Source: Candidatus Moraniibacteriota bacterium (lineage in GTDB: Bacteria; Patescibacteriota; Minisyncoccia; Moranbacterales; UBA1568). Taken from it: 64,000 nucleotides of DNA. The stretch covers positions 23,842-87,841 of the forward strand of contig JAGOTT010000002.1 in the NCBI GenBank assembly GCA_018061645.1, written 5' to 3'. Of the stretch, positions 2,700 to 61,889 are shown in pieces. Made by a program: the position numbers and the translations under genes. Within the stretch, counting starts at the first letter, position 1, and each line of letters opens with the position of its first letter. Below the pieces are notes generated by a model. That model searched no databases and was not told where the DNA came from. It worked only from the letters and a program-made list of their open reading frames with translations.

Positions 2700-3683
2700 A
2701 TGGAGCCATATCTCGGATTTTGGAAACAACTGAAAAAACCGTTTTTCGTGTTGGCGCCGATGGACGACGTGACGGATGCCGCTTTTCGACAGATCATCGC
2801 GAAACATGGTCGTCCTGATGTGACGTGGACGGAGTTCGTCTCTGCGGACGGCCTGTGTCATCCGGTCGGGCGGAAGGCGATACTCCCGAAACTGTGGTTC
2901 GACGAGAGCGAGCGACCGATCGTGGCGCAGCTTTTTTCGTCCTCGTCGGAGAAGATGCGTGGCGCGGCAAAACTCGCGGCGGAGCTCGGCTTCGACGGGA
3001 TCGATATCAACATGGGGTGCCCCGACAAGCTTATCAACAAACAGGGCGCCGGCGCGGCGTGCATCCTGGATTTCAAGAAAGCTCAGGACCTGATCCGTGC
3101 GGCGCAGGAGGGGGCACGAGACACAGGGAAGGAACTCCCTGTGTCGGTGAAGACGCGGCTCGGATTCGACACGGATATCCTCGAGAGTTGGTTGCCGGCG
3201 CTCCTCGAAGCGGAGCCGGCGGTCGTAACGATCCATGCTCGGACGCGGAAGGAAATGTCGGACGTGCCGGCACGATGGGAACGGATCGGGCGCGCGGTGG
3301 AAATCGCAAAAGGATCCGGAACGCTTATCATCGGCAACGGTGATGTGCAAGATATTGCGAAGGCGCGGGAGCTTGCGACAAAGACCGGCGTGGATGGGGT
3401 TATGCTCGGGCGGGCGATATTTGGCAACCCGTGGCTTTTCGATGAGGCAAAGGGCGTGGTTTCCGTCGAGGCGAAGCTCCGTGTCATGGTGGAACATACG
3501 AAACTCTATGAGGAGCTGTTTTCCGGCGTGAAGGGATTCGACTCGATGCGTAAACACTACGTCGCGTATGTTTCGGGGTTCCCGCGCGCGAAGGAACTGC
3601 GGGTGAAACTGATGAGCGCCAAGAACGCATCGGATGTTTCGGGTTTCGTCGAGGATTTCATATCGAGTCACGAAAAGTCATGA
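2700..3683 (+). CDS. tRNA-dihydrouridine synthase (Dus family)
   Basis: FVLAPMDDVTDAAFRQI motif and TIM-barrel Dus signature. TGA stop overlaps the mnmA start. Confidence 0.8.
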   Translation: MEPYLGFWKQLKKPFFVLAPMDDVTDAAFRQIIAKHGRPDVTWTEFVSADGLCHPVGRKAILPKLWFDESERPIVAQLFSSSSEKMRGAAKLAAELGFDGIDINMGCPDKLINKQGAGAACILDFKKAQDLIRAAQEGARDTGKELPVSVKTRLGFDTDILESWLPALLEAEPAVVTIHARTRKEMSDVPARWERIGRAVEIAKGSGTLIIGNGDVQDIAKARELATKTGVDGVMLGRAIFGNPWLFDEAKGVVSVEAKLRVMVEHTKLYEELFSGVKGFDSMRKHYVAYVSGFPRAKELRVKLMSAKNASDVSGFVEDFISSHEKS

Positions 3684-4897
3684 AGATAGCGATGCTTATT
3701 TCCGGCGGGGTGGACAGTTCCGTTTCATTGCGGCTGCTTCGCGATTCCGGTCACGATATCACCGCGTTCTATCTCAAGATCTGGCTCGAGGACGAGCTTG
3801 CATTCTTGGGCGAATGTCCGTGGGAGGATGACTTGAAGTATGTCCGCGCCGTGTGCGAGGAGGCGGGTGTGCCGCTCCGGATCGCGAACCTCCAGAAGGA
3901 ATACTGGGACGAAGTGGTCTCGTACGTGATCGCGGAGGCGAAAGCCGGGCGGACGCCGAACCCGGATATCCTCTGCAATTCCCGGATCAAGTTCGGGATG
4001 TTCTACGACCGGTTCGGCAAGGATTTCGATCGGGTCGCGACGGGGCACTATGCGCAAACTGAACTGCGTGATTTTCCGAAAGAAACTTTTTCCACGCCTC
4101 CTCGACTCATCAATTCTTTCGGTTACCGAAAAAATTCCCTCCCTCAACGGCAACCTGAGGAATTTTTTCGAACCGGAAACATTTTTTCAGACAGGAAGGA
4201 GCGCGCGGAAAAAATTCTTTCGGGAAATCCATCCGTACAGGAAGTGCTTCTCAAAAAATCTCCCGACCCGATAAAGGATCAGACGTATTTTCTCTCCCAG
4301 CTGTCGCAGGCGCAGGTGAACAAAGCGCTCTTTCCGATCGGCGGATTTCAGAAATCGGAAGTGCGTGAGTTAGCAAAGAAATATAAACTTCCGAACGCGG
4401 CACGGAAAGACAGTCAGGGGATCTGTTTTTTAGGGCAAGTCGCGTTCGACAAATTCCTCGAGCACTATCTCGGAACGAAGGAGGGCGATATCGTCGATCT
4501 GAAAACGGGGAAGGTGTTTGGAACGCACAAGGGATATTGGTTCCACACGATCGGACAAAGGCGGGGGCTCGGGCTCTCTGGGGGACCGTGGTATGTCGCG
4601 TCAAAAGATATCGGGGATAACACAGTCTTCGTTTCGAACGAGTGGCGGAGCGAAGAGATGGCGCGGGATTCGTTCATCGTTTCGCGATTGAACTGGATCT
4701 CCGGTAAGATTTCCGGGAAAAAGAATCTTTCCGTGAAACTCCGGCACGGACCGAAGGAGTATCCGTGCGAAGTGAAGTTTCTTGACGATGAGAGGCTCGA
4801 AGTGAAACTCGACGGCTTCGACCGTGGGATTGCGCCAGGGCAATTCGCGGTATTCTATGATGGGAAATATTGTCTCGGTGGCGGAGTCATCGTATAA
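3680..4897 (+). CDS. mnmA: tRNA-specific 2-thiouridylase MnmA, carrying a ~50-aa in-frame insertion
   Basis: SGGVDSSV PP-loop, CNSRIKFG and ATGHYA...KDQTYFL motifs. About 70 residues separate ATGHYA and KDQTYF, against ~20 typical. Confidence 0.85.
   Translation: MKIAMLISGGVDSSVSLRLLRDSGHDITAFYLKIWLEDELAFLGECPWEDDLKYVRAVCEEAGVPLRIANLQKEYWDEVVSYVIAEAKAGRTPNPDILCNSRIKFGMFYDRFGKDFDRVATGHYAQTELRDFPKETFSTPPRLINSFGYRKNSLPQRQPEEFFRTGNIFSDRKERAEKILSGNPSVQEVLLKKSPDPIKDQTYFLSQLSQAQVNKALFPIGGFQKSEVRELAKKYKLPNAARKDSQGICFLGQVAFDKFLEHYLGTKEGDIVDLKTGKVFGTHKGYWFHTIGQRRGLGLSGGPWYVASKDIGDNTVFVSNEWRSEEMARDSFIVSRLNWISGKISGKKNLSVKLRHGPKEYPCEVKFLDDERLEVKLDGFDRGIAPGQFAVFYDGKYCLGGGVIV
4073..4227. repeat. AT-rich nested inverted-repeat element inserted in-frame within mnmA
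   Basis: Outer arms tttccgaaagaaactttttcc (4073-4093) / ggaaaaaattctttcgggaaa (4207-4227). Inner perfect 12-nt arms cgaaaaaattcc (4127-4138) / ggaattttttcg (4159-4170). Local GC is ~40% against ~58% in flanking mnmA. Confidence 0.55.
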
Positions 4898-20675: not shown

Positions 20676-20691
20676 GGTTTCGTGCTTAAAA

Positions 20692-21096
20692 TGTGGAGTT
20701 GATGGGAATCGCACCCATGTCCAAAATGTTTCTTCAAAATAATCTACAAGCTTAGCGTGTCTTGGGTGATACTGAGGGGTAAAAGATACGCGAAATCCCT
20801 TCAGGATCGTTTCTTCGTGCATACGGCTCAAGGCGGGAAAAAACGGAAGTCGCCTCTTGTCGTCCCGATAATATGACACCGAACGTTCCTACCGGGAATC
20901 AGGCGTTCGATGGCTCCGCACTAAACTGAATTAGGCGAGGGCAGGCGCGAAAGAAGGGGCAAACGCTTGCGCGAATGCGTTCTTGGCCTTGGTGATGAAG
21001 TTTGCATTTATCATCGTGGAAGCGAGTTTTTCGATCATACTTCCGAGATCGGCTTGCATATTTTGAATGTGCATCCTGTCGAAACTAGGCAACCCC
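20692..21096 (-). ncRNA. ssrA: tmRNA (ssrA)
   Basis: 5' GGGGTTGCCTAGTTTCGACAGG (canonical tmRNA start). Tag frame GCAAACTTC...GCCTAA = ANFITKAKNAFAQAFAPSFAPALA*. 3' T-arm GGGTGCGATTCCCAT and acceptor CAACTCC pairing with the 5' GGGGUUG. smpB is ~150 nt away on the same strand. Confidence 0.75.
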
Positions 21097-21120
21097 AGAC
21101 ATTGCGGAGCAATGTAATTT

Positions 21121-21240
21121 CTAATAACCAAGCTCCAATTTCCAAACAATGATCAATCACCAAATTGCAAGAACCAAACGGAAACCGATTTGATTTTTGG
21201 AAATTGGAAATTATTTGGAAATTGGAATTTGGTTATTGGT
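21121..21240. repeat. AT-rich palindromic intergenic island (arms ~28 nt: aataaccaagctccaatttccaaacaat / revcomp)
   Basis: The left half is the reverse complement of the right half (ggaaattggaaattatttggaaattggaatttggttattgg). Related islands occur at 1441-1560, 13735-13800, 28441-28500, 46624-46739, 49205-49270 and 54531-54660. Confidence 0.6.
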
Positions 21241-21243
21241 CAT

Positions 21244-21684
21244 TTAATTCAAATGCCTTCGCATTTGAATTTTTGCTTCTCGCTTCTTGATCGTTTCGCG
21301 CTTGTCGTAGGATTTTTTTCCTTTTCCCACGGCGAATTCGAGCTTTATGAGCTGGTTCTTAGTATAGACCCGGATAGGGACGAGTGTCAAGCCTTCTACG
21401 CGTGATTTTCCTATCAATGAGCGGATTTCCGAACGCTTGAGAAGGAGCTTTCTCGGTCTGGCATCCTCGTTCTTGGTATCCTTGTGGGCGTGTTCGTAGC
21501 GTGGAATGAGCGAATTCGTAAGGTAGAGCTCGTTTCCGTGGGTGGTGACGAAGGCGCCTTTCAGGCTGATATGACCTGTTTTCGCCGCCTTTACCTCGTT
21601 TCCGGTCAAAACCAAGCCCGCCTCGTACCGGTCGAGGAGTTCATAATCGAAACTTGCCCGTTTGTTGACAGCGAGTGTTTTCAT
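21244..21684 (-). CDS. smpB: SsrA-binding protein SmpB
   Basis: MKTLAVNKRASFDYELLDRYEAGLVLTGNEVKAAK... Confidence 0.85.
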   Translation of the reverse strand: MKTLAVNKRASFDYELLDRYEAGLVLTGNEVKAAKTGHISLKGAFVTTHGNELYLTNSLIPRYEHAHKDTKNEDARPRKLLLKRSEIRSLIGKSRVEGLTLVPIRVYTKNQLIKLEFAVGKGKKSYDKRETIKKREAKIQMRRHLN

Positions 21685-32382: not shown

Positions 32383-32499
32383 ATGAGTGATTTCATGTTC
32401 GAGGTCGGTTTTTTCGGTCTTTGTTACGCGCTTATCTTCGGTGGAATATTCGGGGCCGCGTACAAGATGACCGAAATGATGCTTGTGATGATCGCCTGA
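32383..32499 (+). CDS. possible 38-aa hydrophobic peptide
   Basis: MSDFMFEVGFFGLCYALIFGGIFGAAYKMTEMMLVMIA. Followed by a terminator hairpin. Confidence 0.25.
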   Translation: MSDFMFEVGFFGLCYALIFGGIFGAAYKMTEMMLVMIA

Positions 32500-32510
32500 A
32501 GTTGGGATTT

Positions 32511-32600
32511 CCGGAAAACCTCCTCCTTGCGGGGGAGGTTTTCGTTTCCCAAAAAATGAAAACGCCGGCAGTTGCTTCTGCGCGGCGTTTTGCTTCAGGG
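32511..32600. terminator. pair of hairpins forming bidirectional terminators between convergent genes
   Basis: CCTCCtccttgcggGGGAGGtttt on plus. AAAACGCCGcgcagaagcaactgCCGGCGTTTTcatttttt on minus. Confidence 0.4.
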
Positions 32601-32738
32601 GATTTTTGGCGGTTTCTTTCGACGGTTCAATCCGATCGCGACGGACGCGAGAAGCGCCGCTGCCAAAATGACGCATATGGCCACGAGGATTATTGATCCA
32701 GGGTCGATGTCGATGATGTGCATGGCAAACTCCTTTGT

Positions 32739-40673: not shown

Positions 40674-41612
40674 ATGATCGACATCCATACCCATCTTCAT
40701 TTCAAGGACTACGACGCGGATCGCGACGCGGTGATCGCGCGTGCGCGTGAAGCTGGGGTGGAGAAGATGATCCTGGTCGGGACGGACCTCGAATCGTCGC
40801 GCACGGCAATCGCACTTTCGGAGAAGCATGATTTTCTGTTCGCATCGGTCGGCATCCACCCTCACTTTTTCAACGAAGTTGAAAAAGAATTTCCAATTTC
40901 CAATTTCCAATTTCCAAACAAATCCCAATTTCCAATTTCCAAATTTCAAACGGAAATCAAAGGAATAACGGAGCTAGCGAAACATCCGAAGGTCGTGGCG
41001 ATCGGGGAGTGTGGGCTGGATTACTTCGTACGCAACGAGCAAGGAGCAACGAACAATGAGCAGGGAGGAGCAATCAGCAATCAACAGAAGAAAATCCAAG
41101 AAGAAGGATTTTTGGCACAGATGGAAATCGCGAAGGAACTCGGTCTGCCGCTCATCATCCACACTCGCCCCTCCGTTGGCACGATGGATGCCTACGAAGA
41201 TGTTTTCGAGATTCTGAAAAATCATTTATCACTCATCCCGCATCCCGCATCTGCTTTCATCCTCCACTGTTATCAGGGTGACACGGAAATCACGAAGAAA
41301 CTTCTCGGACTGCCGAACGCGCATTTTTCTTTTGCGGGAAGTGTCACCTATCCGGTAAAAAAATCGCTTATTGGAACGAAGGATGATTCCTCGGAGGTCG
41401 TAAAACTTGTACCGATGGAGCGAATTTTTGTCGAGACGGATTGCCCGTATCTTGCGCCGCAGCCGATGCGCGGGAGTCGCAACGAGCCGGCGTATGTCAC
41501 GATGACCGCGGAGCGGATGGCGGAAACGAAGGGGACGGATGTCAAGGAACTGGAATCGACCATAAACCGGGTCTTTTCAAGGGTTTTCGGAAGGAGTAAG
41601 ATGGAAACGTAA
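40674..41612 (+). CDS. TatD-family metal-dependent DNase with two low-complexity insertions
   Basis: IDIHTHLHF N-terminal histidine motif, then the conserved GECGLDY and further catalytic His/Asp motifs. Insertions FPISNFQFPNKSQFPISKFQ and NEQGATNNEQGGAISNQQ. Confidence 0.75.
   Translation: MIDIHTHLHFKDYDADRDAVIARAREAGVEKMILVGTDLESSRTAIALSEKHDFLFASVGIHPHFFNEVEKEFPISNFQFPNKSQFPISKFQTEIKGITELAKHPKVVAIGECGLDYFVRNEQGATNNEQGGAISNQQKKIQEEGFLAQMEIAKELGLPLIIHTRPSVGTMDAYEDVFEILKNHLSLIPHPASAFILHCYQGDTEITKKLLGLPNAHFSFAGSVTYPVKKSLIGTKDDSSEVVKLVPMERIFVETDCPYLAPQPMRGSRNEPAYVTMTAERMAETKGTDVKELESTINRVFSRVFGRSKMET
40891..40950 (+). repeat. CCAATTT heptamer tandem array (~9 units) in-frame inside tatD
   Basis: ttccaat ttccaat ttccaat ttccaaa caaatcc caatttc caatttc caaattt caaa. 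Confidence 0.85.
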
Positions 41613-44372: not shown

Positions 44373-44560
44373 TGAGAGCCTGTTGAATATCTCATGTCGA
44401 GTTGCAAACTCGGAAATTCCGCGCGAAAATCATGAAAAGTAAGAAGGGATACTATCGTATCCCGACAAGCTTTGAATGGTTTGCAGCCGGAATTTCCGAG
44501 TTTCAGCCGACAAGCACTTGTTTTTCTTTTATTCATGCGGTGAGATATTAAACAGGCTCT
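44373..44560. repeat. 188-nt nested palindrome in atp leader
   Basis: Outer arms tgagagcctgttgaatatctca / tgagatattaaacaggctct. Inner arms cgagttgcaaactcggaaattccg / cggaatttccgagtttcagc. Apex hairpin GGGATACtatcGTATCCC. Confidence 0.6.
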
Positions 44561-44570
44561 GTTCGATCGT

Positions 44571-45326
44571 ATGGAAATATCCATCGCGGCGGAAAAACTT
44601 TTCGGTTTCGGAACATTCCCCATCACGAACTCACTTCTGCTCGCTGTCTCTTTGAGCGCGCTCCTGTCGGGGGCCGTTTTTGTTTTCCTGCGGAAGCTCG
44701 AGGAAATCCCGCGCGGGGTGCAGAACGCCGTCGAGGCGGTGTTCGAGGCGCTCCTCTCGCTCATCGAGAGCGTGACCCAGGACAAGGTGCAGGCGAGAAA
44801 GTTCTTTCCGCTCATCGCGACGATTTTTCTCTTCGTGCTCTTCTCGAACTGGGCGGGGCTGCTCCCCGGTGGCGGGACGGTCGGCGTTCACGGTGAGCAC
44901 GGGGGGCATGAGACGGTCATTCCGTTCCTTCGCAGTCCGTCGGCGGATCTCAATATGACGCTTGCGCTCTCGCTGATTTCCGTTTTTTCGATCCAGTTCG
45001 CGGGCATCGCCGCTTTGGGTCTTCGCGGATATGCGTCGAAATTCTTCGTCGCGCCGTGGACCAAGCCCTATGGTATCGGTACCGCGGTCGGACTCCTCGA
45101 GCTTATCGGGGAATTCGCGAAGATCCTTTCATTTTCATTCCGGCTCTTCGGAAACGTGTTCGCGGGGGAAGTGCTTTTGACCGTCATGCTCCATCTGGTC
45201 CCGTATACCATCCCGCTCCCGTTCCTGTTTCTCGAGGTGTTCGTCGGAGTCATCCAGGCGCTCGTGTTCGCGCTTCTGACGCTTGTCTTCCTTAAGATGG
45301 CGACCATCGGGCACGAGAGTCATTAG
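44571..45326 (+). CDS. atpB: ATP synthase Fo subunit a
   Basis: Five to six TM helices. Conserved Arg in ...FRLFGNVFAGE.... Confidence 0.85.
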   Translation: MEISIAAEKLFGFGTFPITNSLLLAVSLSALLSGAVFVFLRKLEEIPRGVQNAVEAVFEALLSLIESVTQDKVQARKFFPLIATIFLFVLFSNWAGLLPGGGTVGVHGEHGGHETVIPFLRSPSADLNMTLALSLISVFSIQFAGIAALGLRGYASKFFVAPWTKPYGIGTAVGLLELIGEFAKILSFSFRLFGNVFAGEVLLTVMLHLVPYTIPLPFLFLEVFVGVIQALVFALLTLVFLKMATIGHESH

Positions 45327-46230: not shown

Positions 46231-46620
46231 ATGAAAGTATCGTCGTCACAATATGCGAAGACGTTGCTCGCGCTTTCCGATACGGGAGACGTGCGTCGGA
46301 TTGCCGCATCGTTCCTGGCGCTCGTCCGGAGAAACCGCGCGGCGAAGCGGCTTCCGGCGATCCTCCGGATGGCGGAGCGCCTTTCGGACGAGCGCGACGG
46401 GGTGATATCACTTTCGGTCGAGACGGCGACCGAGGCGGATGCATCGGTGCGGCAGGCTATCGAATCCGTCGTGGCGGGATTTTTTCCGGGGAAGCGGCCG
46501 GTGTTCAGATACGGAGTAGTTTTCGGTCTCGTGGGCGGCGCGCGGATTTCTTCCGATGACGAGATGATCGATGCGACGGTCCGTAGGAGATTGATTGAAC
46601 TTGAAAAGGCACTGCGCTGA
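46231..46620 (+). CDS. atpH: ATP synthase F1 subunit delta (OSCP)
   Basis: Position and size fit. MKVSSSQYAKTLLAL.... Confidence 0.75.
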   Translation: MKVSSSQYAKTLLALSDTGDVRRIAASFLALVRRNRAAKRLPAILRMAERLSDERDGVISLSVETATEADASVRQAIESVVAGFFPGKRPVFRYGVVFGLVGGARISSDDEMIDATVRRRLIELEKALR

Positions 46621-46623
46621 TAG

Positions 46624-46739
46624 TCATTTTCCAATTCCCAGTAAGTTTTCATTTGTACGAATTCCTGGTTATTTTTGGAAATTGTTTCATTGATGATTCA
46701 TTGGTAATTGGAAATTGGTAATTGGAAATTGTTTCAAGT
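46624..46739. repeat. AT-rich island with ggtaattggaaattg repeats (atpH-atpA spacer)
   Basis: cattggtaattggaaattggtaattggaaattg; same CCAATTTCC family as 21121-21240. Confidence 0.5.
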
Positions 46740-51438: not shown

Positions 51439-53859
51439 ATGGATAAGCGATATTCCCCGAAAACCATAGAGCCGAAATGGCAGAAAGAATGGGAAGAAAA
51501 AGGGATTTTCCGTCAGTATGACCGGAAGAAGAGATTCTACGTACTCGACATGTTCCCGTATCCGTCCGGAACCGGTCTTCATGTCGGTCATCCGAAAGGG
51601 TATATCGCGACCGATGTGGTGGCGCGGATGAAACAGCTACAGGGCTTCGGCGTGCTCCACCCGATGGGTTGGGATGCGTTCGGACTTCCGGCGGAACAGT
51701 TTGCCATTAAGAACAAGATGCATCCGAGTATCGCTGTGAAAGAGAATATCGGAACCTACAAGAAACAGATGGAAGCCATCGGGTTTTCCTATGATTGGGA
51801 GCGGGAAATCGATACGACGGACCCGGAGTATTACAGATGGACGCAGTGGATATTCCTCAAGATGTTCGAAAAGGGACTCGCGTACGAGTCATATGAGCCG
51901 ATCAACTGGTGTCCGTCGTGTCAGACGGGACTGGCGAACGAGGATCTCGAGGACGGTGCGTGCGAACGCTGCGGGACGCAGGTCGAGAAGAAGCCGATGC
52001 GGCAGTGGGTACTCAGGATGACCGCGTACGCGGATCGGTTGCTTGCCGATCTCGATCGGACGGAGCTTGATTGGGAAGAGCAGATCAAGGAACAACAGCG
52101 GAACTGGATCGGACGGAGCGAAGGAGCGGAAGTCGAATTCCAAATCACGAATTCCAAATCAAAGATAAGAGTCTTTACCACGAGAGTTGACACTATTTTC
52201 GGGTGCACGTATGTGGTCGTGGCGCCGGAACATAGAATAATTGCAGATTGCGAATTGCAGATTGTAAATTTCGGAGAGGTCGAAGAGTATCTCGAGAAGA
52301 CAAAGAAAAAGTCCGATCTCGAGCGGACAGAACTGAACAAGGAAAAAACCGGCGTGAAACTCGAAGGCATCGAAGCGGTGAATCCGTTCACAGGGGAATC
52401 CGTACCGGTGTACGTTGCCGATTACGTACTCGGCTCATATGGCACGGGCGCCGTCATGGCAGTCCCGGCGCATGATGAGCGTGATTTCGAGTTCGCGAAG
52501 AAGTACGGACTTGATATAAGCACGGTGGTTTCCGGCGGAGATCAATCCGATGAAGTCGCATTTACCGAGGATGGGATGCTTGTAAACTCTGGTGATTTTT
52601 CTGGACTTTCATCCGCGGAGGCGAGGGAAAAGATGATGGCATGGATCGAGGAGAAAGGACTCGGCAGGAAGTCGGTGAAATACAAGATGCGGGACTGGAC
52701 GTTTTCGCGCCAACGATACTGGGGCGAACCGATCCCGATCGTTCATTGCGAGGAATGTGGCGCGGTGCCGGTCAAGGAGTCGGATCTTCCGGTGCGGTTG
52801 CCGGATGTGGAGTCGTATGAGCCGACGGGAACGGGAGAATCGCCGCTTGCGGATATAGATGAGTGGGTGAATGTGCCGTGCCCGAAGTGTGGGGGCGCAG
52901 GGAAGCGGGAGACGAATACGATGCCGCAGTGGGCGGGGTCGTGCTGGTATTACCTTCGGTTCATCGATCCGAAGAATGGCGGAGCGTTCGTCGGGGAAGA
53001 ATTGGAAAGGGAATGGATGCCGGTCGATCTTTATGTGGGTGGCGCGGAGCATGCGACGCGACATCTCCTCTATGCCAGATTCTGGCATAAGTTTCTCTTC
53101 GATATCGGTGTCGTTTCGACCGATGAGCCGTTCAAGAGGCTTGTTCACGTCGGACTCATCAATGCATCCGATGGGCGGAAGATGTCGAAGCGATGGGGGA
53201 ATGTGGTGAATCCGGACGATATCATCAGGGATTTCGGCGCGGACGCGCTCAGGCTCTATGAAATGTTCATGGGACCGTTCACGCAGAACATCGCCTGGAA
53301 TACCGAAGGACTCGTCGGGACGCGGCGATTCCTGGATAAGATATGGAAGCTTTCCGAGAAAGTGACAAGGAACAAGGAGAGAGGAACGAGTGGGAACGAA
53401 AAACTTGAAGCGGCTGTTCATCGGACGATCAGAAAGGTGACGGAAGATGTCGACGATTTCAAGTTCAATACCGCGATCAGCGCTCTTATGATTCTTGCGA
53501 ATGCGATGGAGAAGGAGAATCATGTATCGGACATCGTGTATCGGGAATTTCTTATCCTCCTCTCTCCCTTCGCGCCGCACATCGCGGAAGAACTCTGGGA
53601 AAGATCGGGAAACGAACAGTCGATCTTCCTTGAGAAATGGCCGCAGTACGACCCGGAGAAGGCGGTCGAAATGCAGGTGACAATCGCGGTTTCAGTGAAC
53701 GGGAAAGTGCGTGATATCATCACAGTCGCGAGGGATGCTTCGGAGGAAACGCTTCGATCGAAGGCGCTTTCGAATGAAAAGGTGCGGAAATATTTGGAGG
53801 AGAAGGAACCGAAAAAAGTTATCGTCGTTCCCGGTCGCATCGTCAATATCGTCATCTGA
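51439..53859 (+). CDS. leuS: leucine--tRNA ligase
   Basis: PYPSGTGLHVGH (HIGH) and KMSKRWGN motifs. Start refined to MDKRYSPKTIEPKWQ. In-frame heptamer arrays at 52141-52168 and 52236-52270. Confidence 0.9.
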   Translation: MDKRYSPKTIEPKWQKEWEEKGIFRQYDRKKRFYVLDMFPYPSGTGLHVGHPKGYIATDVVARMKQLQGFGVLHPMGWDAFGLPAEQFAIKNKMHPSIAVKENIGTYKKQMEAIGFSYDWEREIDTTDPEYYRWTQWIFLKMFEKGLAYESYEPINWCPSCQTGLANEDLEDGACERCGTQVEKKPMRQWVLRMTAYADRLLADLDRTELDWEEQIKEQQRNWIGRSEGAEVEFQITNSKSKIRVFTTRVDTIFGCTYVVVAPEHRIIADCELQIVNFGEVEEYLEKTKKKSDLERTELNKEKTGVKLEGIEAVNPFTGESVPVYVADYVLGSYGTGAVMAVPAHDERDFEFAKKYGLDISTVVSGGDQSDEVAFTEDGMLVNSGDFSGLSSAEAREKMMAWIEEKGLGRKSVKYKMRDWTFSRQRYWGEPIPIVHCEECGAVPVKESDLPVRLPDVESYEPTGTGESPLADIDEWVNVPCPKCGGAGKRETNTMPQWAGSCWYYLRFIDPKNGGAFVGEELEREWMPVDLYVGGAEHATRHLLYARFWHKFLFDIGVVSTDEPFKRLVHVGLINASDGRKMSKRWGNVVNPDDIIRDFGADALRLYEMFMGPFTQNIAWNTEGLVGTRRFLDKIWKLSEKVTRNKERGTSGNEKLEAAVHRTIRKVTEDVDDFKFNTAISALMILANAMEKENHVSDIVYREFLILLSPFAPHIAEELWERSGNEQSIFLEKWPQYDPEKAVEMQVTIAVSVNGKVRDIITVARDASEETLRSKALSNEKVRKYLEEKEPKKVIVVPGRIVNIVI

Positions 53860-55518: not shown

Positions 55519-56373
55519 ATGCCTCTTCTATTTGGAAAACCGGTCTCGGAAAAAATTCTTTCCGAGACAAGAGAGAAAATAAAAGGCTCGGGAGTCGTTC
55601 CGGGACTCGGTGTCGTGTTGGTAGGGGACGACCCTGCGTCGCGGATTTACGTCGGCATAAAGGAGTCGCGTGCGAGCGAACTCGGTTTCCGTTTCGTGAA
55701 GACGGAACTTCCTGTCTTCGCGACGGAAGCGGATATCCTTGATGCTGTTCGGAAGCTGAACAAAGACGAGAGCGTTCATGGGATTATCGTACAATTGCCG
55801 CTTCCTCCCGGAATAGATGCCGACCGGATTATCACTGCGATCGACCCCATGAAGGATGCCGACGGATTCCTTCTCGATGAAAAAAATGTAACACGAACTC
55901 ACGGTCGTGAGATGATGTTACATTCTGTGCCGGTGTTTCCGGAGGCGATGATAGAGCTTGCGAAATCTTCGGGCGTGCCTTTTTCGGAGAAGTCCGGTGT
56001 CGTACTTGTGAATTCCGAACGATTCGGGAAAACGATGGTGGATGCGCTTCGGCAGGAAGGCGTACAGTCGGAGTATGTATTTTCCGATGATATCGGTTCG
56101 AGCCGATCGACGATCAGTCGGGCTGATTTCGTGTTCACCGCGCTCGGGAAGCCGGAAGCTCTTTCGAAAAACATGTTCAAAAAAGGTGTGGTCGTGATCG
56201 ACGGCGGCATCGCTCCGTCAGACAGGAAAATCGTCGGGGACGTGTCCATCGACGGAAGCGATGAAAATATGTTTCTCTCACCGGTTCCCGGTGGCGTCGG
56301 TCCGGTCACGGTCGCATGCCTCCTTCGGCGGGTCGTGACGCTCGCGCTTGAAAACGGAAAAACGGCCGCATAG
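55519..56373 (+). CDS. folD: bifunctional methylenetetrahydrofolate dehydrogenase/cyclohydrolase
   Basis: GLGVVLVGDDPASRIYVGIKESRASELGF...VHGIIVQLPLP. Confidence 0.85.
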   Translation: MPLLFGKPVSEKILSETREKIKGSGVVPGLGVVLVGDDPASRIYVGIKESRASELGFRFVKTELPVFATEADILDAVRKLNKDESVHGIIVQLPLPPGIDADRIITAIDPMKDADGFLLDEKNVTRTHGREMMLHSVPVFPEAMIELAKSSGVPFSEKSGVVLVNSERFGKTMVDALRQEGVQSEYVFSDDIGSSRSTISRADFVFTALGKPEALSKNMFKKGVVVIDGGIAPSDRKIVGDVSIDGSDENMFLSPVPGGVGPVTVACLLRRVVTLALENGKTAA

Positions 56374-60576: not shown

Positions 60577-61722
60577 ATGAAAACAAAAGCATTCAGAAAG
60601 ATATTCGGGACATTCGCGGTTCTGGCGTTCGCGCTCGGTGCCGGTGTCGCGATCCGCTCCGCCTCCGCAGGAATGGAAACCGGTTCCGGCTGGTTGTGGG
60701 GCGGAAGCGAGGTTGCCGATACGAATGGTGGTGCCGCACCGAACAACGGGGTATTGGATGGAGATGAATCCGGTCTTGGGTGGGTGAGCTTCAACAGCAC
60801 CGATTGTGATACGAACAACAATGGAACCATCGAGGCCTCCGAAGTGGCAGCGCATCCGGGATGTCCGGCAGGCGCGACCGCGAGTTATGGAGTGGATATC
60901 CCTTCCGGTAACGGTCCGCTTTCCGGCTATGCCTGGTCGGAAAATTTCGGTTGGATCAGTTTCAACGGCGCCGATCTATCGGGAGTAAATCCTTGTGCCC
61001 CAGTGCTTGCACAGGCGACACGGACCGGAAGTAGTATTTCCGGCGGAGCGAGGATTCTTTCCATAAAAACTGCGATGGCAGCAGGAAATGCCGGTGGGTT
61101 TGACGGATGTATCAGTCTCTCCGGAGCGGCTCCAGCTTATAGTGTGACCGTTGATGCAACACCGGATCCGGATAAGTTATTGGGCTATGCTTGGTCGAGC
61201 GATCTCGGTTGGATCGATTTCAGCCGTGCGTCGGTCGGGGGCGCGTTGCCTCCCCCGAACACCCTCAAGGTCTGTCTCAATTCCTGCGATAGTGGAAGTC
61301 TCAATTTTAATGGCGGGGTTATAAGCTTCAACCCGACCGAAACCCGTCAACTCGTATCCTGTCATAATTCCGCTCCTGATTGTTCGATGGCTTCCGGGGA
61401 TATCACCGCGCTTGGTACTACGAGCTTCTCTGCAGGGGATACTCCGAATGATGCTGTGACTCCGACAGCGACAAAGGGAGAATTCCAGGCGAACGCCGTC
61501 GCATCTACTCAAAGCGAGGATGTTTCGATCGTGACGGCATCTGGTAACGCCTCAATGCGATTTACCACCCTCTATACTCCAGCATGCTCCTCCTGTAACG
61601 ACGAAAAAGCGCAGCACTGTCCGACTGAAACTTGGACGAGCGGATGCGGAGTGAGTTGTGCGGCGGGAACAGGCACTCGATACTGCGACATGAACTGGAA
61701 GGAAGTGGCGCCGGGACAGTGA
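60577..61722 (+). CDS. secreted protein with three GYAWSENFGWISFN-type aromatic repeats and Cys-rich C-terminus
   Basis: Signal peptide MKTKAFRKIFGTFAVLAFALGAGVAIRSASA. Repeats LGWVSFN / GYAWSENFGWISFNGADLS / GYAWSSDLGWIDFS. Confidence 0.55.
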   Translation: MKTKAFRKIFGTFAVLAFALGAGVAIRSASAGMETGSGWLWGGSEVADTNGGAAPNNGVLDGDESGLGWVSFNSTDCDTNNNGTIEASEVAAHPGCPAGATASYGVDIPSGNGPLSGYAWSENFGWISFNGADLSGVNPCAPVLAQATRTGSSISGGARILSIKTAMAAGNAGGFDGCISLSGAAPAYSVTVDATPDPDKLLGYAWSSDLGWIDFSRASVGGALPPPNTLKVCLNSCDSGSLNFNGGVISFNPTETRQLVSCHNSAPDCSMASGDITALGTTSFSAGDTPNDAVTPTATKGEFQANAVASTQSEDVSIVTASGNASMRFTTLYTPACSSCNDEKAQHCPTETWTSGCGVSCAAGTGTRYCDMNWKEVAPGQ

Positions 61723-61760
61723 GCTGAAAGTCCATCAAGTTCGTAAAGTTGTAAAGTTAT

Positions 61761-61792
61761 AAAGAAAGCCTCTTATTTTAGGGGCTTTCTTT
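61761..61792 (+). terminator. hairpin AAAGAAAGCCTC-ttatttta-GGGGCTTTCTTT
   Basis: aaagaaagcctcttattttaggggctttctttac. Confidence 0.4.
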
Positions 61793-61889
61793 ACTTTATG
61801 GACTTGAAAGACTTTAAAAACTTGATGGACTTTATGAACTGTTCATTCTGTAGTACAATGGAAAAAGAAATAAGTGATCGGATTTTCCT

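Follow-up and report, generated by a model that had tools for sequence, protein, structure and literature searches.

We analyzed a 64,000-nucleotide stretch of a Candidatus Moraniibacteriota genome (contig JAGOTT010000002.1, positions 23,842–87,841 of the forward strand; hereafter, the window), in which an open reading frame (ORF; 3680–4897, + strand) encodes a 405-amino-acid MnmA, the tRNA 2-thiouridine(34) synthase. The protein is 100% identical to that of a Candidatus Moranbacteria metagenome-assembled genome (MAG), contains the three MnmA domains of Pfam (PF03054, PF20259, and PF20258), and matches E. coli MnmA (2DER) with an E value of 3e-78 by HMMER. Within this mnmA lies a palindromic insert, T1 (the name is also used here for the family to which the insert belongs), at 4073–4237 (+ strand). 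T1 comprises 165 nt, that is, codons 132–186 (FPKETF...SGNPSV), between the regions encoding the GHYA and KDQTYF motifs, and is absent from the empty allele of a related locus, L004. Its boundaries were taken from the comparison of the filled allele with the empty one and are uncertain by one to two codons.

A sequence-only reading of the window had described an in-frame element of ~155 nt and ~50 amino acids at this place, close to the measured 165 nt and 55 codons. Its contrast in GC content, 40% against 58%, was in the right direction but exaggerated: the values are 43.9% at 4073–4227 and 54.1% in the remainder of mnmA. The reading frame through T1 is stop-free, as that reading had stated, the length of the insert is a multiple of three, and the catalytic motifs of MnmA are all intact.

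The HMMER alignment to 2DER breaks at the insert site, between residues 143 and 155 of the E. coli protein, which has a similarly short segment there. In an AlphaFold model (mean predicted local distance difference test score [pLDDT] of 78.9) computed from an alignment of 38 Moranbacteria MnmA proteins (A1), residues 134–184 have a pLDDT below 50 and lie between two strands (126–131 and 187–192); because of this, the T1-encoded segment is predicted to be a disordered loop at the tip of a β-hairpin. The orthologue alignment, 2DER, and the AlphaFold model thus agree with the surface loop that had been anticipated.

T1 folds into a single nested hairpin

Folding of 4060–4240 gave one long nested hairpin both as RNA (–62.2 kcal/mol, z = –5.36) and as DNA (–37.8 kcal/mol, z = –5.44), with 0 of 200 shuffles as good in either case. 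Of the two nested inverted repeats seen earlier, the inner one is exactly as claimed, with 12-nt arms at 4127–4138 and 4159–4170 that are 100% complementary, whereas the outer arms (4073–4097 and 4203–4227) are imperfect, being 25 nt rather than 21 nt long and 76% complementary. Together with the alignment and the AlphaFold model, the folds bear out a nested palindromic element inserted in-frame at a predicted disordered surface loop.

A covariance model (R1) built from 12 T1 copies matched 4066–4233 (+ strand) over its full length at 165.6 bits (E = 2.6e-40). The reverse strand of the window T1 scored only 40.8 bits, hence T1 has a defined orientation. Read on the + strand from the base of the hairpin to its tip, the outer stem, helix 1, pairs 4070–4082 with 4217–4229; helix 2 pairs a conserved TTTTTC (4087–4092) with GAAAAA (4207–4212); and helix 3 pairs 4098–4103 with 4196–4201. 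Next come two conserved internal loops. The 5' loop, GACTCATC (4104–4111), includes a 2-bp helix 4 and consists of columns that are near-invariant, in intergenic copies too; the 3' loop (4184–4195) has the family consensus TTCTTCAGACAAG and reads TTTTCAGACAGG in the window. Above these, helix 5 pairs 4112–4123 with 4172–4183, and helix 6, the perfect inner repeat, pairs 4127–4138 with 4159–4170. The apical loop (4139–4158) contains a conserved CTCMMTCRRCGGCAWCC, which is kept in intergenic copies and is translated in two frames among orthologues.

The insertion site turns over among close relatives

The state of the site was read in the 120 best MnmA matches. In 77 of these closest proteins, GHYA and KDQTYF are joined by an 18-residue β-turn linker (xTEERDGxTxLKxSPDPx), and in 43 there is extra sequence at the same turn, of at least four sequence types. 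All five kinds of insert for which DNA was examined fold as hairpins; the z scores of those other than T1 are –7.4 for type T3, –3.6 for type T4, –3.6 for the insert of locus L095, and about –4 for that of L014. Distant, unrelated lineages carry non-hairpin, low-complexity expansions at the same turn, and so the turn tolerates insertions in general.

In a neighbor-joining tree of the MnmA core, from which the inserts had been removed, T1 is scattered among alleles that are empty or hold other inserts. Sister proteins differ in state: T1 and empty (P0002 and P0007), T1 and T4 (P0024 and P0051), T1 and T3 (P0021 and P0041), and T4 and a GC-rich hairpin (P0046 and P0060). The mnmA genes of the window, L004, and L095 are each 86–92% identical to that of L001 in both their 5' and 3' parts, and among these four genes the site has four states, namely T1 of subfamily A, T1 of subfamily B, empty, and an unrelated GC-rich hairpin. 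An ancestral conserved domain, the possibility that the sequence-only reading had set against its own interpretation, was not what the orthologue alignment returned, given the basal linker in 77 of 120 proteins. Because sister alleles lack T1 or carry other hairpins, T1 is not an ancestral MnmA domain.

Two loci hold composite inserts at this turn. That in the mnmA of L005 (10404–10800) begins with a full subfamily B T1, which is followed by the 3' half of one from subfamily A and by a GC-rich hairpin (peptide ECHPGL...), and the mnmA of L006 (789–1060) has a subfamily A T1 together with the GC-rich hairpin. Such arrangements suggest that T1 alleles have recombined unequally and that additional hairpins have accrued. 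We also noted a second hypervariable site in Moranbacteria MnmA, after NWISGxxP (A1 columns 493–551; about 4700–4720 in the window). Peptides inserted there, such as ELVSGPQENTGRSRNEFGMT and PPLSLEDSTAPLGQGS, resemble translated GC-rich palindromes; the MnmA of the window has no insert at this second site.

The hairpin, rather than the encoded peptide, is conserved

T1 homologues, each of ~165–170 nt, were found in 10 mnmA loci among the orthologue DNA, and the same four-tier hairpin is present in all 10 and in two intergenic copies described below. These 12 sequences were aligned (A2) and used for the covariation counts. RNAalifold on A2 returned 51 pairs, of which 38 show compensatory double changes. 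Pairing is kept in 90.2% of the alignment cells, compared with 39–57% for slid partners; in 500 shuffles the observed values were never reached.

The sequence of helix 1 is wholly different between subfamilies and yet remains complementary: its 5' and 3' arms read TTTCCGAAAGAAAC and AATTCTTTCGGGAAA in the window, CCGACAGGAATGTA and CACATTCCTGTCGG in L001, and TCCTTGCAAACTAT and ATATTTGCAAGGA in L008. All 13 of its pairs have changed on both sides, with 83% of cells paired. The same holds for 5 of the 6 pairs of helix 3, for 11 of the 12 pairs of helix 5 (91% of cells paired), and for 6 pairs of helix 6 (98.6% of cells paired). The unpaired parts, by contrast, are conserved in sequence across A2, namely the apical loop CCTCAMTCRACGGCAWCC and the internal loops GACTCATC and TTCTTCAGACAAG, and so is the TTTTTC/GAAAAA helix.

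We then considered whether T1 might be a lineage-specific protein domain or loop that is selected for a peptide function in MnmA. The frame is open in all copies, and some residues recur (F7, R20, L24, R27, and P29 in alignment A4), as this explanation would have it; the recurring residues, however, are a consequence of DNA conservation. T1 has no codon periodicity: its pairwise differences are 0.30, 0.31, and 0.33 at codon positions 1, 2, and 3, against 0.18, 0.13, and 0.49 in the remaining mnmA. Moreover, L013 (protein P0025), which matches R1 at 142 bits, has a pair of 1-nt indels that put the central part of T1 in another frame than in L010 while its DNA is conserved (peptide FPSLDGGTQETF against NSLTRRQPMEFF; in the longer form, …EKFPSLDGGTQETFRSE… against …DRKNSLTRRQPMEFFRT…). 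The segment is also predicted to be disordered, and is absent or replaced in sister lineages. Given the codon-position and frame-shift results, a selected peptide is refuted within the limits of these tests and is, in our judgment, hardly credible. Collectively, the data show that the conserved entity is a nucleic-acid hairpin, with covarying stems and asymmetric loops, and not the peptide that it encodes.

T1 copies outside mnmA

Profile and R1 searches covered ~1 Mb of Patescibacteria mnmA neighborhoods and recovered two intergenic homologues. One (L028, 1811–1979; 138 bits) starts 5 nt past a nifU-like gene's stop codon and is on the strand of that gene, and the other (L024, 12288–12457; 111 bits) lies 2 nt past the stop codon of mutY, on the strand opposite to both neighboring genes. 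The conserved loops of T1 are present in both of these non-coding copies. T1 is therefore a small family, dispersed in the genomes, that is normally located at the ends of genes, and mnmA was the one in-frame context detected.

These homologues bear on the idea that T1 is a local, de novo palindrome, made from mnmA's own sequence by template switching or fold-back repair, with arms in concerted evolution and no dispersed family behind it. Such an origin would account for the complementarity that is held despite the large sequence change in the outer stem, and for the resemblance of part of the 5' arm to empty-site sequence; the coding palindromes of nematomorphs provide a precedent for concerted evolution from arm to arm. 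Against it, the core of T1, including the loops, is homologous across distant hosts and in the two intergenic copies, blind homogenization of the arms would erase conserved asymmetric loops, and the GC content of T1 is 10 points under that of the host gene. The intergenic homologues largely refute this explanation, and we consider it very unlikely.

Several candidate copies were set aside. In the window, a weak nhmmer match at 53151–53183 (E = 0.004–0.02) is a 33-nt similarity inside coding sequence, and a short palindrome, CGGAAAAAATTCTTTCCG, at 55547–55564 (in ORF 55519–56373) agrees with the outer-arm motif at 16 of 16 nt, probably by chance or composition. R1 matches below about 31 bits (L024 8758–8963; L021 2181–2295 and 3202–3285; L013 20756–20830; and the T3 insert of L094) are other hairpins, intergenic or in genes, that share only a generic 'stem-TTTTTTC...GAAAAAA-stem' frame, and were not counted as T1. 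Among them, those of L024, L021, and L013 are intergenic, score 19–31 bits, and have the outer frame 'stem-ATTTTTTC...GAAAAAAT-stem'; this shared frame hints at a looser superfamily or at a structural template common in these genomes.

Exchange between mnmA alleles

The identity of T1 does not follow that of its host genes. Between the window and L001 the host genes are 0.89 identical and the elements 0.61, whereas between L001 and L002 the values are 0.83 and 0.96, and between L006 and L007 they are 0.76 and 0.83. The T1 of L001 and the linker to its right are 0.96 and 0.90 identical to those of L002; by contrast, the 3' part of the L001 gene is 0.78 identical to L002 but 0.86–0.88 identical to L004, the window, and L095 (0.88 to L004). 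The comparison thus shows at least one allele, L001, to be a recombination mosaic, in which the element and the adjacent linker codons come from another lineage than the rest of the gene; alleles of mnmA thus pass from one lineage to another. Because diverged linker codons travel with the element, homologous recombination through the near-invariant flanks encoding GHYA and KDQTYF is the simplest route of spread. Frame-disrupted mnmA alleles, which would hint at excision at the RNA level, numbered 0 among 92 DNA loci.

Origin and maintenance of T1

The interpretation that we favor, with a probability of roughly 0.58, is that T1 is a non-coding, non-autonomous, low-copy palindromic family of Moranbacteria and related Patescibacteria that is tolerated in-frame and is exchanged among mnmA alleles by recombination. 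The original insertion into mnmA would have come from an intergenic family member, and later spread among mnmA alleles would have occurred mostly by homologous recombination, with the ultra-conserved GHYA- and KDQTYF-coding flanks acting as homology arms. To judge from the open frame, the ribosome would read through T1 and produce a disordered loop of ~55 residues that MnmA tolerates. The tolerant loop might act as a selective filter, in that the site recurs as one that is permissive and is bracketed by homology arms, and the hairpin may be kept for the element's own propagation or stability (a selfish constraint) and not for any need of MnmA.

Several results weigh against this interpretation. 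Searches of the 64-kb window with blastn, nhmmer, and R1 found no second T1 copy, and the ~1 Mb of related loci yielded none outside mnmA beyond the two intergenic ones. Further copies, for which the sequence-only reading had proposed a search, were thus found between genes in other genomes, but neither in the window nor, by the protein searches described next, in other ORFs. A strict core pattern matched two of 185,579 species genomes (two MAGs), both at known mnmA loci, and two patterns gave 0 matches to viral contigs. The one search of other proteins with real power, that with the five alternative frames concatenated, found no match to T1, nor did the in-frame peptide match any of 1.84 billion 50%-identity representatives, a weak negative in that MnmA itself was not recovered. 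A peptide profile of ten sequences found no new host; it also missed known T1-bearing MnmA proteins, and that search is therefore underpowered and uninformative. All 11 mnmA copies share one site, strand, and frame, which purely random insertion does not predict, and conserved asymmetric loops combined with covarying stems usually mark an RNA that has a function or a DNA recognized by a protein. As to hallmarks of mobility, the similarity between filled and empty sites (L001 against L004) is ambiguous and no clear target-site duplication was seen, and no candidate transposase was identified, though no whole-genome transposase search was made. Translation through T1 is inferred from the open frame only, and protein databases would not list frame-disrupted alleles. 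Because the copy number is very low, mobility by transposition is not demonstrated. In metagenome contigs a relaxed pattern gave 0 matches; the MnmA relatives in that collection are all at most 61% identical.

The uniform placement is what would be expected if T1 were a homing-like, site-specific element, whose folded loops are read by a trans-acting enzyme (e.g., a HUH/Y1 transposase or a structure-specific recombinase) that re-inserts it at mnmA. The patchy distribution would then reflect independent gains rather than allele exchange. In favor of this are T1's use of one codon, one strand, and one frame throughout 11 lineages that are dispersed in the host tree, the asymmetric loops and covarying stems, expected of a protein-recognized hairpin, and an abrupt drop in identity at the edges of the element when close relatives are compared. 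Like repetitive extragenic palindromic sequences (REPs), both intergenic copies border on stop codons, and, in the comparison of L004 with L001, the empty-site sequence has a possible similarity, itself ambiguous, to the 5' arm and right flank of T1. On the other hand, flanking linker codons travel with the element in L001 and L002, for which recombination is a better fit than clean transposition, and hairpins of at least four unrelated families are found at the same turn, which points to a filter for tolerant sites and not to the specificity of a single enzyme. With no transposase identified, no clear target-site duplication, and a very low copy number, we consider homing unlikely.

Similarly, we consider it improbable, to about the same degree, that the hairpin is a functional structured nucleic acid that serves the cell or mnmA. 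It might, for example, impose a translational pause between MnmA domains, give RNase III or another nuclease an entry point that controls the mnmA mRNA, act as a protein-binding site, or yield a small RNA from the transcript or its antisense. Strong covariation, conserved unpaired nucleotides, and the lack of codon-level constraint are in keeping with such a function, and divergence over the entire element (about 0.31) is below that at the third codon positions of its host (0.49). In all 12 T1 copies, the antisense (reverse-complement) RNA fold is the more stable, by 4–17 kcal/mol, with 4–11 G:U pairs per copy against 0–4 in the sense fold; since the copies are related, these are not 12 independent observations. 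Against such a function, a hand count in A2 revealed no strand bias of G:U versus A:C stem mismatches (roughly 28 vs. 23). Furthermore, T1 is missing from close relatives or replaced there by hairpins unrelated to it, its homologues between genes are found in contexts that are unrelated to one another and run either with or against local transcription, and T1 has no Rfam match.

The more far-reaching proposition, that T1 is structure-specific, has a recognition code of its own in the form of asymmetric conserved loops upon covarying stems, and either homes repeatedly to one mnmA codon or serves as a functional RNA or single-stranded DNA module inside a coding sequence, seems doubtful to us. 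If it were true, Patescibacteria would harbor a class of hairpin cassettes that are exchanged into and out of permissive loops in essential proteins, and the Candidate Phyla Radiation (CPR) would have a way of varying protein length that has not been described before.

Comparison with known systems

The sequence-only reading had likened the insert to Rickettsia palindromic elements (RPEs). RPE-1 and its relatives (Ogata et al. 2000, 2002) are described in PMC10969869 and PMC2229807, and RPEs reportedly lose repeat identity over time (PMC6649704). T1 resembles them in behavior, in that it is a palindrome in-frame at a predicted surface loop and has intergenic family members. Both are elements of about 100–170 nt that are palindromic and non-coding but have an open frame, both occur between genes as well as in-frame within a conserved enzyme gene, and in both the inserted peptide falls at a tolerated surface position that leaves the host enzyme intact, which for T1 is a prediction; an RPE-bearing enzyme was demonstrated to stay active (PMC10969869, PMC2229807, PMC3733652). 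The palindrome of about 100–150 nt with a stable hairpin that typifies RPEs has its counterpart in T1 (165 nt, z about –5.4), as does the stop-free, in-frame insertion at a surface position of a conserved protein gene; T1 has, in addition, a lower GC content than its host gene. A genome with numerous copies, scattered over intergenic DNA and various unrelated genes, was not seen for T1 in the window or with the strict core pattern: it is of very low copy number and was found in one protein, always at one site. It also differs from RPEs in its phylum (Patescibacteria), in a hypervariable outer stem around a conserved core and loops, in the maintenance of base pairing (90% paired, 38 covarying pairs), and in the turnover of its site among several hairpin families. 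The likeness is thus one of shape and behavior, homology is not shown, and the comparison holds for behavior but extends neither to family membership nor to multi-copy dispersal.

The accompanying remark that such behavior is not generally described outside Rickettsia was overstated. [quoted passage not shown] They include in-frame REP fusions in Opitutus and Thauera, and small palindromic repeats also occur in tRNA-modifying genes (PMC2229807, PMC3733652, PMC10969869). Like T1, bacterial MITEs and REPs inside genes are small, non-autonomous stem-loop repeats; they lie mostly no more than a few bases from the 3' end of a gene, a placement shared by the two intergenic T1 copies, and now and then form in-frame fusions, also with genes for tRNA modification and repair (PMC2229807, PMC3733652). 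Unlike MITEs, which have conserved terminal inverted repeats and target-site duplications, T1 has termini that are not conserved among copies, its conserved parts being internal, and no clear duplication. REPs measure 20–40 bp with a GTAG or CGTC head, whereas T1 is a single 165-nt hairpin without such a tag; of the features of REPs and bacterial interspersed mosaic elements (20–40 bp, GTAG/CGTC head, high copy number, and a REP-associated tyrosine transposase [RAYT]), T1 shares only the placement 2–5 nt after a stop codon. No RAYT or insertion sequence element was identified in association with T1, a whole-genome transposase search not having been made.

The coding palindromes of nematomorph mitochondria are, like T1, long hairpins in coding sequence whose arms evolve in concert, so that pairing is kept while the peptide changes, and they are gained and lost between related species (PMC6649704). 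Unlike T1, they are mitochondrial, perfect inverted repeats spread over many genes, without conserved loops and without a sequence family shared with intergenic DNA (PMC6649704).

Searches of Rfam 15 with the window T1 and the intergenic L028 copy, on both strands, returned only noise (E ≥ 0.24, far below gathering scores); a scan of the whole window at gathering thresholds found only a tmRNA and one tRNA. T1 is not an integron attC site, in that the R''/R' boxes (RYYYAAC ... GTTRRRY) are absent, by inspection, at the ends of all A2 copies, and these ends are not conserved. A ribozyme or K-turn reading of the loops was likewise rejected: the antisense strand has CUGAUGAG, GAA, and GUC, in an order that fits no hammerhead topology, and the G·A geometry of a K-turn is lacking, in line with the negative Rfam result.

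The intervening sequences of bacterial 23S rRNA genes are hairpins that interrupt a highly conserved gene at fixed sites and occur sporadically among close strains. Different types of insert are found per site, and their spread is thought to occur by recombination through conserved flanks. RNase III removes them from the rRNA, and they remain untranslated; T1, on the contrary, is part of an mRNA, has a frame that stays open, and presumably undergoes translation.

If borne out, our interpretation extends to the CPR a phenomenon for which Rickettsia is the best-known case, 'selfish palindromes inside protein genes'. In the literature searched, we found no report of in-frame palindromic elements in CPR bacteria, which is weak evidence of absence. 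Because in-frame palindromic elements are already documented outside Rickettsia, we rate the novelty as moderate; it lies in the new phylum, the maintained structure with conserved loops, and the insertion hot spot. The case is unusually clean, with filled, empty, and differently filled alleles among close relatives, and with conservation of the hairpin and not of the peptide; a single β-turn of an essential tRNA-modification enzyme has been occupied by at least five unrelated hairpin families. It raises the questions of whether such hairpins are neutral passengers, recombination cassettes, or functional nucleic acids, of how a hairpin of about –60 kcal/mol and a disordered loop of 55 residues are handled by ribosome and enzyme, and of what share of the puzzling protein-length variation in the CPR is due to hairpin elements. 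In practice, such inserts should be masked in annotation and phylogenomic pipelines.

Other hairpins and neighboring genes

A few kb from mnmA, L008 (506–1989) and L095 (12657–14216) have a bAvd-family gene beside a reverse-transcriptase gene, as in diversity-generating retroelements. L010 (2530–3621) has only the reverse-transcriptase gene, and L009 (1–376), at the locus edge, only a bAvd/23S-IVP-family gene. No link between these genes near mnmA in the four loci and T1 was found.

The window holds a second nested palindrome at 44373–44560, with outer arms at 44375–44394 and 44541–44560 (95% complementary) and inner arms at 44406–44452 and 44457–44503; no other hairpin in the window is as strong (–72.5 kcal/mol). 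The palindrome is located just upstream of an ORF (44571–45326) that by eye resembles an ATP synthase a-subunit gene. Homologous copies occur in L007 (2004–2190, between an Rrf2-family gene and dus) and in L027 (5743–5905), so this is a dispersed hairpin family and not an atp-specific leader. The sequence-only reading was right that this palindrome is real and nested, but not in tying it to the atp leader, since the copies in other relatives lie in different contexts. Its suggestion that the genome hosts several such elements holds for intergenic hairpins and not for the mnmA element, which has no second copy in the window.

A family of AT-rich hairpins with TTTGGAAATTGGAA-like words is present at 21106–21260, 1425–1545, 40887–40975, and 46617–46730, with further copies in L004, L005, L095, and L016; the copy at 21106–21260 directly abuts the tmRNA gene (20691–21096, – strand). 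Two adjoining terminator-like hairpins occupy intergenic DNA at 32461–32630. Lastly, a nested hairpin at 61711–61850, right after ORF 60577–61722, encloses a GC-rich terminator-like stem and has a weak copy in L016 (8700–8794).

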